Shown: positions 21,420 through 63,601 of the stretch, piece after piece
Layout: every line of letters begins with the position of its first letter
Numbering within the stretch: position 1 is the first letter of the stretch
Assembly: GCA_951406725.2 (NCBI GenBank)
Contig: OX597820.1
Coordinates: forward strand, 8,432,001 to 8,496,000
DNA: 64,000 nucleotides
Direction: 5' to 3'
Source of the DNA: Octopus vulgaris
Lineage: Eukaryota
Notes under the pieces: model-generated
What the model was told of the DNA's origin: nothing
What the model saw: only the letters and a program-made list of their open reading frames with translations
Databases searched by the model: none
Program-made: the position numbers and the translations under genes

Positions 21420-22400
21420 AGGAGAATTATACATCTATAGAGTTTTGTATTATTACAGCCTTTTATCTCTTATTATAAAAGTACAGTATATTCTCTTTCA
21501 ATCTTTGCCTGACATATATTGCTGCTGCCTGTATATCTTATGTGGTGTTCGTTTGTATCCTGTTGTTCAGCTGGCGACTTACAAGGATGCAAATGAACAC
21601 CATATTTCAACAATATATATTATTTTTAATGAACACGGTATACATTTTATTTAGCTTCTAGTAGTTTCATGGAATGAAAACGATACAAGCAACATCTTAT
21701 GACACGCATGGTACTTTCATGCAATCTTCAGGCTATGCTCACATGGCATATACGAGATAGAATAGGATGATAGAATATGAAACATACGAGAAAAGGCGAG
21801 GAGAAGGTGGATGTAAAAGGTGGATGGTCAAAAGCACCGCAAAAAAAACGAAAAAAGAAAGAAAGGAAAAAGAAAGAAACGTGTGAGAATTAGAGTTAGG
21901 TCCCCTTTGACCGTAAAGCCATAATAAGACTGAACGGATGGGGGTCTAGAGTCTGCGGTACAGCCTCTGAATCCGAAGAGGGTGGTATTTTCCATTTCGC
22001 CAACAAGAACTTATTCATATGTTTACGTCTGCTGAAAATTTCAGATCTACAAATCAGCAACGCACTGGAGTTCTTAGATCTAAAAAAAGAATGTCTGCCT
22101 CAAAATGGCTAAATCTTTTAACCTATGAAGGTATTTAAAACATAACGTTCTTTAAAACATAACGTTCCATAATAATGAAAGATAATGTAGTATAAAAAAT
22201 AAGGCCTTCCACCTCATCCGTCTCACGAGGTCTTCAAGTTTCTCGAGGATCATCCTGGGGTATAGGTTTATCGATGCTGTAGGTTTGTTCTTAGTCAAGT
22301 AATCCTTATGGTATGAATCCATAACAGCGAGTAAACTGGTAAAATCTCTAGAGTCGCTCAACTTAACGAAGCTATCACACAGAACATATGATGATTATGA
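21420..22400 (-). mobile_element. Internally deleted Penelope-like element
   Basis: N-terminal motif TKNKP...LEKLEDLVRRMRWKALFF lies next to C-terminal LLICRSEIFSRRKHMNKFLL; a degenerate hammerhead (CTGAAGA TTGCAT GAAA GTAC) sits downstream at about 21706-21738. Confidence 0.7.
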
Positions 22401-22601
22401 ATTCACACTATGTATGTATGTATGTATGTATGTATGTATGTATGTATGTATGTATGTATGTATGTATGTATGTATGAGTGGACAAACGAAGGAAAAGGCA
22501 CTCAACACATTTATTAGAAGTTACATGTATCATTCAAAACATTTTGATTCGCAAGCCCTTAACGGAACCTGTCTCATCGGGCTGGTATTCGGATATCCCC
22601 A

Positions 22602-22655
22602 CCAGCCTGAAGAGACAGACTCCATTAAGAGCTGGCGAAACTTGAAGTAGCATGG
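22602..22655 (+). ncRNA. Type I hammerhead ribozyme motif
   Basis: CCAGC-CTGAAGA-stem II (GACAGACTC/GAGCTGGC)-GAAAC-ttgaa-GTA-GCaTGG. Confidence 0.65.
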
Positions 22656-22884
22656 AATCTGAATCAAACTGTTTTGAATTATATATATATATATATATAT
22701 ATATATATATATATATATATATATATATAGATATATATATATAAAGAAACAAGTTTAAAATAATGGTCATGACATATAATTCTTTTATTGGAGCAAATCT
22801 GGCTTACAGATGTTTCTAGTAGTCATTATTGGTACATTCCTGATACGATTACTCAGTTGGTCTATTGATCAATTGGGATAAATT

Positions 22885-23113
22885 GAGCTGGCAGAACCGT
22901 TAGCACGCCGGGCGAAATGTTTTAGTGATATTTCGTCCGCCGTTACGTTCTGAGTCCAAATTCCGCCAAGGTCGACTTTGCCTTTCATCCTTTCGGGGTC
23001 GATTAAATAAGTACCAGTTACGCACTGGAGTCGATATAATCGACTTAACCCGTTTGTCTGTCCTTGTTTGTCCCCTCTGTGTTTAGCCCCTTGTGGGTAG
23101 TAAAGAAATAGGT
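22885..23113 (+). mobile_element. OK-like SINE
   Basis: Near-identical to the other copies. Confidence 0.88.
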
Positions 23114-59907: not shown

Positions 59908-60280
59908 GCTGTGGAAATCAGCTGCCCAGCGGATGTTAACATAAAGCTGAAGATCAGTGAAAAAGAGAACACTCTTGCTGAAATATTGAGAAATCTGCAG
60001 TTACTCTATCCAGACTACGAGTTCAAGTTTATTCCTGAAATTATTGGGGCCCTGGGATATGCAACACACTACCAAAATATCAATCTTGAGAAGTTAGGCT
60101 TCTGAAAACCAGAAAGGAGAAAGCTAATTCGAAGACTACAGATCCAGTCCATTACTGGAACTGTGAAAATCTGTAAAACTTTCCTGAAGTTTATCATTTA
60201 AATAAATATAAGCGTGTCTAGATATGCAACTAGATGCATACATAAAACATACATAAAATAAAACATAGAAATCTGCGCGT
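59908..60280 (+). mobile_element. 5'-truncated copy of the 29602-32850 RLE LINE family, in (CATA)n
   Basis: EISCPADVNIKLKISEKEN...LQLLYPDY and the 3' UTR closely match 32494-32850. Confidence 0.88.
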
Positions 60281-62584
60281 ATACATACATACAAACAAAC
60301 ATACATACATACAAACAAACATACATACATACATACATACATACATACATACATACAAACATACATACATACATACATACATACATACATACATACATAC
60401 ATACACACATACATACATACATAATGTGCATGAATGTATAATACAAGAGATAAAAATCATTGACTTACATTCAGACAATTCTTCGCCAACAGACACAGTT
60501 CTACGCTTATACACTGTAAGACTGTCGCGGGTGTATATAACATTGTTAGTGAGACTACTCATACACAATATAAAATATGCGTGACATTTATTTTTATACT
60601 TGCGTGCGTGTGTGTGAGTTTGTACGTGTATGAGTATGTGCGTATGTATATATATATATATATATATATATATATATATATATATATATATACATATATA
60701 CATACATATACTTACATATATATATATATATATATATATATATATATATATATATATATATATATATATATATATATATATATATATATATATATATATA
60801 TATATATATATATATATTATACACACACATATACATTTCTGTAAACACATCCACCTGTCCTATGGCAAATTACAGCGTTATTTATTCTCGGCTTGCAGTT
60901 TTTTTAATACTTTTAGCCATTGTTATATGTAAGTATATTAGACACGTGATAGATCTTTTTACCTCTGTGTGTGTGTGTGTGTGTATCTGTGTGTGTGTGT
61001 GTGTGTGTGTGTGTGTGTGTGTGTGAGGGTGCTAATGTGCTTACGTGCAGACACGTTTCTCGCGAGTGTATATATCACATACATCCTTGTGTTTATGGAT
61101 GTTTTAAGATTTATTAGGAAAGACAACAAAGGTGAGAGACAGAAAACATATTGTCTGTCTGTGTGTCTGTGTCTGTGTGTTTGCGTGTGTGAGCATGTTT
61201 GAGTATGTGTGAGTATATTACTAAATGAGTGTACACCCACGTACATATATGCATGCTTTTATATGGTTGTATATATCTATATATTGAAAGTATATGTATA
61301 TATATACATACATTCAGACATATCTATATATGATATATATATCTATATATAATATATATATGTATAGATATATATGGGTGTGTGTGCGTGTGTATAATGT
61401 GTGGTAAGTAGCTTGTTGGTAAGCAAGCTACTTACCACACATCGTTCTGGGTTCAGTCCCACTGTGAGGTACCTTGGGCAAGTATCTTCTACTGTAGCCG
61501 CGTGCCGACCAAAGCCTTGTGAGTGGATTTGGTAGCCGGAATTGGAAGAACCCTGTCGTATATATATATATATATATATATATATATAATAGTGTAATAA
61601 ATAAAATATATGCATACATACATACATATATGTACGTACCTACATCTACATGTATATATACATGCATATATAAATATATATACGTGGGTACAGGACACCA
61701 CAAATAGACGTAGAACTCAACGAGAAACGAAAACGTAAAAACAAACGTGGAAACGGACCTAAACGAAAAAAACAGAGTACAAGACAAACTACACAAGGAA
61801 AAATCCCCTTTATCAGCTGTCCCTAGTTCAGCTCCAGCGTGTTTCGAAGGTGAGGACAGAACACGACTCGTGGAACTAATCCTTCCTGCGAAGGAATTAA
61901 ATAAAATTACTTCGCAGAGGGGTAAAAACAAGGAAAGTTAAACATGTGACAAAACCAGGACGTAAAAACGATACAAATAAAATTACAAAATAAAATACAA
62001 AATAAAAATACAAAAAATAAAAATACAGAATAAAATTACAAGTACGAAAATACAGTACAAGAAATAAAACAAACAAAAAACAGACAATGAGGGCCTTAAT
62101 GCTGGCCTACACGAGGAAAGATTGTAAGAGCGCTAGAAGAACAGTGTTCACTGTTAGAATGCCAGCGGCGAAAGGAAGCAACTCGCCCGGCTGTGAAAGA
62201 GATGAGGAGGAGTGAGAGAGAGAGAGATAGAGGAAGACAAGCGGCTGTGAGAGAGAGATGAGGAGGAGTGAGAGAGAGAGGGAGATAGGGAAGGAAGGGA
62301 AGGTCAAGCAAAGAGTTGTAGATGTTCGCGTCACAATTATAAATAACAAAACTTACTGGGAGGAGATGAAACGAAACGAAACGAATCGAATCGACGCGAG
62401 GTCGCTCAGTCATACAATAGTGTAATAAATAAAGATAGACCAACAATAGTACTTACCCAGCATACCTATTCCTTTAGATCCCAAGTGAACAAAACCCCTC
62501 ATATTCTTATACACACACACACATTATGTACTGTTCCATGACAGAAAATTCAACAAAAGCTTACTCCATCTGGTGAGAGATAAA

Positions 62585-62780
62585 TATTATTTTTTTAAAG
62601 GTCACAATACATGTATTAAAGCACTCCTAATAGTTTCATCTGCTGAGAGAACTCAAACATATTGTTTAGTTCGTTATGATATGTGGTTTGCGCCTGAAGA
62701 ATATGTTTGAGTTCTCTCGACAGATGAATCTATTAGGAGCGCTTTCATACATCTATTATGACTTTTAAATAAATAATATA
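62585..62780. mobile_element. Diverged fold-back element with a hammerhead-like motif at 62690-62742 (+)
   Basis: Inverted arms. The right arm reads GCGC-CTGAAGA-stem II-GAAt; the left arm keeps GAAA-CTAT-TA. Confidence 0.6.
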
Positions 62781-63340
62781 TATATCAATTCACATATATA
62801 TATAAATATAGGAATGTGTAAATATATATGTCTCTCTCTCTCTCTCTCTCTCTCTCTATATATATATATATATATATATATATCAGTCGCCATGATAGAT
62901 CGTTAGACACTACACCTTTTTTTTGTCTCCTTGTTTCTCTCTTTGTTTTTTCTGTGTCTCTTTCTGTAGAAGAGCGTAGGCTCGAAATATAAAAAACTTT
63001 TTCTATTCCTAAGCGTTATACTAATACATCTGTTTGTTTTGTACACCACCTGTCTTCGTCTTTTGTTTTTTTCGTAAACTCTCCCTATATATATATATAT
63101 ATATATATATATATATATATATATATATATATATATATATATATATATATATATATATATATAGATAGATAGATAGATAGATAGATAGATAGATAGATAG
63201 ATAGATAGATAGATAGATAGATAGATAGATAGATAGATAGATAGATAGATAGATAGATAGATAGATAGATAGATAGATAGATAGATAGATAGATAGATAG
63301 ACATACATGTAGAAGGTTGAAAAGGAACACACGTGTTGAT

Positions 63341-63601
63341 ATATGTGGAAAAAAAGTCAAGGTAGAAAATGCTAAAATAATTTTATAAAAAACATTTCAG
63401 TACCGGTTTCAGTCATTGAACTTTTTCAACTGTAAGTATAGAAAACAATTAAATTTTGGAAAAATATTCTTTTAAAAATCTTTTCTTTTAATTCGTTTTC
63501 CATACTTACAGTTGAAAAAGTCTCAATGACTGAAACCGGTACTGAAATGTTTTTTATAAAATTATTTATAGCATTTTCTACCTTGACTTTTTTTTCCATA
63601 T
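63341..63601. mobile_element. Fold-back element with two U3-A8 hammerhead motifs
   Basis: About 63341-63453 is the reverse complement of about 63487-63601; the same family occurs at 50826-50960. Confidence 0.8.

Follow-up and report, generated by a model that had tools for sequence, protein, structure and literature searches.

Minimal hammerhead ribozymes occur in thousands of single copies per animal genome, with pairs on opposite strands 100-700 bp apart (Cervera and de la Pena 2014, PMC4209133), and the closest described systems to the one reported here are Penelope-like elements (PLEs) that carry such ribozymes in pseudo-long terminal repeats (pseudo-LTRs). PLEs of the Hydra clade have a C-terminal endonuclease (EN), a hammerhead and insertion in (TA)n (Craig et al. 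2021, PMC8557442), and a tail at one end only is already known (PMC8557442, PMC3846280). For the Poseidon element PAc of the anole, in vitro work established that the reverse transcriptase (RT) has two internal start sites downstream of the hammerhead, which equal the tail, that cutting and extension take place on both DNA strands, and that the ribozyme need not cleave (Frangieh et al. 2024, PMC11167929). Penelope of Drosophila virilis (PMC2377424) and Adineta (PMC3846280) has a pseudo-LTR promoter with an Initiator, an intron that follows the start by a few tens of bases within the 5' untranslated region, a tail, and pseudo-LTRs that also occur solo or inverted. Finally, non-LTR retrozymes (PMC7229834; 10.64898/2026.07.22.740005) are 150-450 bp long, have a type I hammerhead and derive from PLE pseudo-LTRs. 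With the exception of the anole work, our comparisons refer to parts of these texts. Here, we describe the hammerhead-bearing islands in 64,000 nucleotides of Octopus vulgaris DNA (assembly GCA_951406725.2, contig OX597820.1, positions 8,432,001 to 8,496,000, forward strand; the whole stretch is referred to as the window). We consider it probable that these islands are pseudo-LTR or 3' pieces of about ten coding PLE families in (TA)n, each with its own minimal hammerhead, and that many of them were likely made by the element's RT copying from inside the 5' leader to the cap.

The octopus elements share all of the above traits with the Hydra clade, including the tail at one end, and with D. virilis and Adineta Penelope, and they are like non-LTR retrozymes in ribozyme type, size and pseudo-LTR origin. 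With the hammerheads of PMC4209133, they share a short or palindromic helix III, an extra base on the 5' side of helix II and the U3-A8 pair; likewise, they number thousands of single copies, form pairs on opposite strands, are rarely part of full elements and are highly diverse within one genome. With the anole element, they share two 3' ends downstream of the hammerhead, AT-rich targets and an uncleaved ribozyme in the insertions. The differences are as follows. In contrast to the Hydra clade PLEs, one octopus family (family C below) has an intron of 1.3 kb in its pseudo-LTR and consists mostly of short copies that are exactly spliced. Genomic copies of D. virilis and Adineta Penelope mostly keep the intron, and the parts of these two papers used here do not describe processed leader copies; the anole study is in vitro and does not treat cap-ended or spliced genomic copies. 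While the anole RT starts at an AC-rich stem-loop without homology to the target, the octopus 3' ends lie at AT-rich leader stretches. Finally, retrozymes are tandem repeats that give circular RNA, whereas the islands of the window, colinear with coding elements, occur singly or as inverted pairs. The islands are listed here by position in the window; fold-backs comprise both strands.

21652..21737, minus strand: family K decayed hammerhead with a long stem II; core C3 at 21732; 3' end like that of the 62690 family.
22477..22680, fold-back: family J island; hammerhead 22602-22655 (plus) with decayed stem II; inverted decayed arm about 22548-22598 (minus).
25728..25888, plus strand: family B 3' piece; hammerhead 25760-25795 with the family-fixed U at position 6.
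27049..27212, plus strand: relative of family H, absent from the first list; hammerhead about 27091-27179; 77-79% identical to 51097/51500.
37311..37665, fold-back: family C (Hydra clade by motifs); long spliced arm 37555-37311 (minus), hammerhead 37520-37477.
37530/37529: exon junction in the long arm of the family C fold-back; short inverted arm about 37550-37665 (plus).
40072..40236, plus strand: family D piece; hammerhead 40097-40145 with G3-C8 core; internal deletion of about 50 nt 3' of the ribozyme.
45037..45152, plus strand: family E piece; decayed hammerhead 45072-45129.
45182..45382, minus strand: piece of family F, which is related to family B; position 4 of the hammerhead (45304-45270) is C.
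50296..50545, plus strand: family G, a 3' piece of 250 bp from a young intact PLE; hammerhead 50300-50344, in which position 4 is C and stem II has a U-U pair at its base.
50745..50960, plus strand: family A 3' piece; hammerhead 50884-50919 with U3-A8 core.
50983..51618, fold-back: family H (Hydra-like EN); hammerheads 51182-51097 (minus, intact, tailed arm) and 51500-51585 (plus, decayed); stem II of about 60 nt.
62500..62800, fold-back: family I; decayed hammerhead 62690-62742 (plus).
62883..63088, plus strand: family B short copy from an Initiator-like site; weakened hammerhead 62960-62995.
63302..63600, fold-back: family A; hammerheads 63432-63398 (minus, tailed arm) and 63509-63544 (plus).

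The first-pass annotation had described 14 hammerhead sites on mostly unrelated, non-coding islands of retrozyme-like families. All 14 sites belong to repeat families, ten in number, rather than to 12-14 unrelated elements. Genome-wide first-look searches gave candidate counts, which are not copy numbers, of 1661 for family A, 1998 for B, 1236 for C, 2788 for D, 1525 for E, 85 for G, 2087 for H, 807 for I, 207 for J and 110 for K, with family F being judged from local loci alone. Family K is old and decayed, with the best other copies 72-82% identical and five copies aligned. Copies of a family have a common 3' end at (TA)n and a varying 5' end, and in eight of the ten families (A, B, C, D, E, G, H and I), the long copies lead into coding sequence for RT or GIY-YIG. 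A 130-aa query from the linker and EN found 15,867 candidates, and the 150 of these that were scored include many 784-aa open frames. Two complete or intact elements define the full-length order: pseudo-LTR with hammerhead, leader, open reading frame(s) (ORFs) for RT and GIY-YIG, 3' region, pseudo-LTR with hammerhead, (TA)n. The first (locus L061), a younger relative of family A, has 174-bp repeats with a hammerhead in both, an ORF1 region, a 784-aa RT-EN frame, a 3' region and (TA)n; in Pfam, RVT_1 scores 34.5 bits, above the cut-off, and GIY-YIG falls just under it (E 8e-4). The second (L196/L197, family G) has repeats of about 530 bp that are 4271 bp apart, frames of 454 and 775 aa and a hammerhead in both pseudo-LTRs, with GIY-YIG above the Pfam cut-off and RVT_1 just under it (E 2e-6). 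The family G island is 98-99.6% identical to the pseudo-LTR of this two-ORF element, of which it is the last 250 bp; 28 of 43 family G matches are identical over 200 nt, and the coding link is seen in 15 of 25 loci.

In the other families, fewer copies reach the coding region: the linker and GIY-YIG frame in 4/30 loci for A, RT and EN in 3/25 for B (in L338, both Pfam domains are under the cut-off), the end of the EN in 4/30 for H, and coding sequence in 5/20 for I, where the long copies L439 and L443 reach RT and EN. Family C is linked through L336 (822-aa frame) and L337 (781-aa frame). For family E, weak EN matches lie upstream in 5/20 loci (E 1e-4 to 1e-5), and the link for family D is a weak one, namely a GIY-YIG-like frame seen by eye in one of 30 longer copies (L385). 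We had entertained C and D as fixed-length non-autonomous elements since none of 25 top matches extended, and dropped this idea when pattern searches found longer copies. Based on these sequence comparisons, we read the islands as short end-pieces of ordinary protein-coding PLEs and not as stand-alone non-coding elements.

The coding parents have the features of EN-containing PLEs: RT followed by a C-terminal GIY-YIG domain (Pfam, L061 and L197), pseudo-LTRs, tandem and inverted arrangements, and an optional tail. The L336 frame has marks of the Hydra clade (cf. PMC8557442), i.e. DKT for DKG, a CxCX5C linker, CxxC near the end of the EN and no CCHH, and has K-W-K where the N-terminal RWK motif of this clade is expected. 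From the first four of these marks, family C appears to belong to the Hydra clade, with H, I and E placed there by likeness, an assignment that rests on motifs. A CX2-5CxxC linker precedes GIY-YIG in the L061, L196 and L338 frames (families A, G and B), which makes these families look Neptune-like, a tentative placement since the linker is common to Nematis and Naiad too. Loci L061-L066 and L196-L197 represent two young Neptune-like PLE families in which an upstream ORF of about 450 aa overlaps the RT frame, likely with a frameshift; their ORF1 has no confident Pfam match, and the many identical 784-aa frames suggest recent activity. In the ORF of L310/L336, RT and EN are separated by an asparagine-rich insert, a feature also described for rotifer Penelope.

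The short copies often begin at a preferred place. In family B, 27 of 30 top matches have no common sequence upstream of the start and 12 of 27 unselected copies end at -82 to -70; 5' ends cluster at Initiator-like motifs in 12/20 copies of family F and 4/25 of family G (37-47 nt upstream of the core), and by eye also in J and E. In family G, a TATA-like box lies about 30 nt upstream, with CCAAT-like boxes beyond. Such fixed 5' ends together with the high copy numbers of B, C and F would also be expected if the short copies were self-propagating non-autonomous elements, similar to retrozymes or short interspersed elements (SINEs), with short masters mobilized in trans by PLE proteins. Non-autonomous PLE derivatives have been published (10.64898/2026.07.22.740005; MRC1 in PMC8557442), and two arrays outside the window fit this explanation: L093 (G000:C31:7851933-7855050), with at least 12 tandem family D units of about 230-245 bp that are spaced by (TA)n and have a damaged ribozyme, and L266:2300-4550 (G000:C1 near 20.00 Mb), with seven identical well-formed hammerheads, of which five are on the plus strand and two on the minus strand, repeated about every 359 bp. 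We regard L093 as a satellite grown from one leader copy and L266 as a classical tandem retrozyme-like array; a relative just left of the window (L067:8841-) has a U3-A8 core instead of C3-G8. Three further points favor this alternative and weigh against our own reading: no ORF link was seen in 20 loci of family J, none was seen in the local loci of family F, for which no genome-wide search was made, and internal promoters are known for Penelope (PMC2377424), such that some second-round copying from short masters is possible. By contrast, eight of the ten families are colinear with coding parents, where a retrozyme would have none; the window contains no tandem, head-to-tail hammerhead units, and arrays are found elsewhere (L093, L266); the TATA-like and CCAAT-like motifs found upstream in the full pseudo-LTR are absent from short G copies; and in family C, spliced short and intron-keeping long copies have haplotypes in common. 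We therefore hold self-propagation of the short copies to be unlikely, and the non-coding, retrozyme-like families of the first-pass annotation find no support in the window.

The likely origin of the short copies as leader copies is best seen in family C. Of the matches to the 37477 island, the top 25 are 99% identical to it, and none extends upstream. A pattern search with the first 25 bases of the island, which correspond to exon 1, found 48 places, 30 of which were fetched. Fourteen of these loci continue at least 45 nt further upstream and keep a segment of 1272-1326 nt between the first exon and the ribozyme, with GT-AG ends in all eight measured and a pyrimidine-rich acceptor. The other 16 are short, lack exactly this segment and have a 5' end near the Initiator-like site (splicing state versus upstream extension, Fisher P 7e-9). 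Exact junctions numbered 309 spliced versus 91 unspliced, with 0 for controls. All 48 spliced junctions examined belong to copies that begin no more than 19 nt upstream or 18 nt downstream of the predicted +1, and the stretch that unspliced copies keep upstream ranges from 17 to >1500 nt (20 loci). Each of three ribozyme haplotypes is found in the spliced as well as the unspliced class (35 vs 25, 9 vs 5 and 2 vs 7), which implies that copies of more than one master lost the intron. At its long 3' end, the island stops just short of the parent ORF, and the short copy thus corresponds to the 5' leader; the copy in the window is spliced. Intronless short copies were likely made from the front end of spliced messenger RNA. 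The family C intron (L310, L336) consists of TG/TA-rich repeats that recur upstream in the 3' region, and fold-backs of family C relatives (L243, L303) have a similar distance from ribozyme to start and a spliced look, with no long parent seen.

An intronless class could also have arisen by loss of the 1.3-kb segment from DNA in one master, or as an intronless autonomous sublineage. The end of exon 1 and the end of the intron have two letters in common, as in a microhomology deletion, and copies that are 97-99% identical give low haplotype resolution. However, the GT-AG ends with a pyrimidine-rich acceptor, the presence of three haplotypes in both classes and the finding that 0/48 intronless junctions extend more than 19 nt upstream make a DNA-level loss very improbable, and we favor RNA splicing.

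Family C has two 3' ends. Of 28 fold-backs in this family, 26 combine a long and a short arm, one is short-short and one long-long, with 49% mixed pairs expected (P ~1e-6). Reading of the sequence showed one tailed arm in each of five window fold-backs (J, C, H, I and A), and the tail of the family A fold-back (63302..63600) matches the leader after the 5' pseudo-LTR in L061. In many family C fold-backs, e.g. L306/L307 and L316/L317, both arms are spliced, which calls for a sense template. Self-priming on an antisense template has been proposed as the source of head-to-head fold-backs and as an explanation for intron retention (PMC3846280), and both the head-to-head orientation and the intron-keeping long copies fit it; the spliced arms on both sides need a sense template, and for family C we give this mechanism hardly any credence.

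In the mechanism that we propose, transcription would start inside the pseudo-LTR, about 20-80 nt upstream of the ribozyme core, as suggested by motifs and copy ends. The endonuclease would nick AT-rich DNA on both strands, and on RNA that is left uncleaved, the RT would have two internal starting points downstream of the ribozyme, as we assume from the anole PLE. A capped mRNA would offer only the leader upstream of the RT start, giving a short copy that ends at the cap and is spliced if the leader has an intron. Long copies would come from the distal pseudo-LTR of a read-through RNA, in which the intron would be unspliced; the intron is kept in 14/14 family C loci entered from upstream, and we guess that loss of the cap-proximal position prevents splicing there. 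Fold-backs would result if one start site is used per DNA strand, as the long and short arms suggest. We lean slightly towards a broader statement, namely that PLE RT routinely copies the capped, spliced leader into (TA)n with one start per strand and from a sense template, that leader copies outnumber intron-keeping copies 3:1 in a young family, that intron retention is positional, and that a large part of about 100,000 motifs, including those with G3-C8 and U6 cores, was so made.

Several further observations speak against these proposals. The start sites are predictions from motifs and copy ends. Lists of top matches favor copies that span the query, fold-back junctions inflate matches near the predicted +1 by a few bases, and some loci were fetched twice such that local counts may hold a few duplicates. 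Many A, H and I copies are plain 5' truncations. Family C is the only one in which spliced copies were found: in family I, an acceptor-like site lies upstream of the ribozyme, yet 0/23 contexts look spliced, short family D copies have no common exon 1 that we could see, and families B, F and G have no intron difference. The family C protein itself gives no Pfam match at E up to 1, leaving its assignment to the motifs. In family A, the splice test comprised seven contexts, all of the unspliced type, which are too few to weigh. No run recorded as RNA was found; contigs from four runs that we guess to be RNA cover the family G element and contain no splice joint and no start or end signal. A back-joint in these contigs is equally expected from the pseudo-LTR repeat in DNA, and we count the contigs on neither side.

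The ribozyme-shaped motifs themselves are real and beyond chance. Type I hammerhead topology, as reported in the first pass, was read at all 14 coordinates. For counting, we used a relaxed descriptor that permits any complementary 3-8 pair, C or U at position 4, loops of up to 70 nt and an extra base or one mismatch at the base of stem II, with a score of at least 7 as a pass; it was written after inspection of the sites and is biased towards those of the window. Nine sites pass (cores 25764+, 37516-, 40103+, 45300-, 50305+, 50887+, 51178-, 63429- and 63512+). The site at 62960 scores 6.5, and those at 22602, 45072, 51500 and 62690 are missed; these five are decayed members of families that have a well-formed motif in other copies, e.g. 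62690 is without A15.1 and U16.1 and 51500 has A6 changed to G. Two unlisted sites were found in the window (27097+ and 21732-). A stricter first descriptor gave 0-3 sites in the window, and an Rfam search (E up to 10) had no hammerhead among the best 150 of 438 matches, which were miRNA models on microsatellites. The window is rich in microsatellites (135 tandem-repeat rows). In the shuffled-sequence check suggested in the first pass, 60 local dinucleotide shuffles with microsatellites held in place gave 0.18 +/- 0.43 matches, maximum 2, versus 9 in the window, and 67 stretches of 10 kb at round coordinates (670 kb) gave 33 matches, seven of them in one tandem array, versus 0-3 (mean 1.75) in eight shuffles. 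Thus, despite a descriptor tuned on the window and the silence of the best Rfam matches, chance matches in AT-rich repeats are a negligible explanation given these excesses, the second of them in stretches outside the tuning, together with the same position of the motif in both pseudo-LTRs and the compensated 3-8 pair.

The high density noted in the first pass was borne out to the extent that the 9 matches compare with 3.15 expected per 64 kb, i.e. the window is about 3-fold denser than background (P=0.005); it is not peculiar to the window, as the 33 matches elsewhere attest. A (TA) tract lies within 250 nt after the motif for 16 of these 33 versus 19% of random positions (P 1e-4). Extrapolation from this relaxed-descriptor sample to the assembly (2.8 Gb, 227 contigs) gives about 105,000-130,000 motifs. 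This count is larger than in PMC4209133, which used a different descriptor; the class and its within-genome diversity are published there.

The cores have the conserved boxes, three stems, a complementary 3-8 pair and a palindromic stem III. The analysis supports the first-pass view of minimal type I hammerheads of PLE origin, with (TA)n targets, fold-backs and many families. Letters were tallied per position among family copies. The 3-8 pair is complementary across families: C-G in seven (B, C, E, G, H, I and J), U-A in A (28/30), as published for Schistosoma PLEs (PMC4209133), and G-C in D (23/26), a double change that is partly active when engineered (PMC11167929). Position 6 is U in 30/30 family B copies, which depart from the core there, position 4 is C in 25/25 family G copies, the base of stem II is a U-U pair in families C and G, and both sides of stem II have changed between family A and its relative in L061. 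The part of PMC4209133 considered here makes no mention of family-fixed G3-C8 and U6 cores, the U-U pair or stems II of 50-65 nt. Any activity of the ribozyme is likely confined to tandem or protein-bound RNA; unless helped by a partner or by the protein of the element, single copies would be poor at cleavage. Most copies would be dead passengers, with solo copies probably inert. Pyrimidine tracts and acceptor-like sites lie just before or inside the ribozyme (50878-50886 and upstream regions of families I and B), and the U6 change of family B makes an acceptor-like site within the core; such sites near or inside the ribozyme have been reported for the D. virilis Penelope intron.

In the open literature (main texts; Repbase and subscription journals lie outside it), we found neither octopus PLE hammerheads nor spliced PLE leader copies described, and the part of the O. 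vulgaris repeat paper (PMC13282606) considered here is without the words "hammerhead" and "ribozyme". The hammerhead class is known; the processed leader copies, the count of arm pairings and some of the core variants were not found in the literature searched. The swarm is, therefore, a known class at high density, and its useful part is the natural experiment in family C, which is young and apparently intact and in which hundreds of near-identical insertions record splicing state, 5' end and 3' start site. PLEs retain introns, the significance of which is stated as unknown (PMC8557442), and intron keeping as well as the formation of pseudo-LTRs, tails and inverted ends are stated open questions (PMC8557442, PMC11167929); the family C insertions favor a sense template and internal priming and speak against the antisense-template idea for this family. 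In addition, the families supply natural variants of the ribozyme core, and short PLE pieces would explain repeats that pipelines for transposable elements could file as SINEs or unknowns.

Elsewhere in the window, more pieces of families C and B, which are truncated or have no intact ribozyme, lie at 9945-10182, 17029-17089, 42221-42308 and 56221-56341. A search for a PLE ORF in the window found none except a short decayed RT fragment at 18325-18554 (tblastn E ~5e-7). Decayed LINE-like RT frames and pieces of mariner-like transposase were seen by eye at 29685-32672, 7364-8897, 4938-5841 and 40655-41419. Open frames at 24117-24530, 35054-35989, 45893-46522 and 57974-58450 resemble host-gene exons with repeated domains; if they are such exons, the elements studied here would sit in introns or between gene copies.

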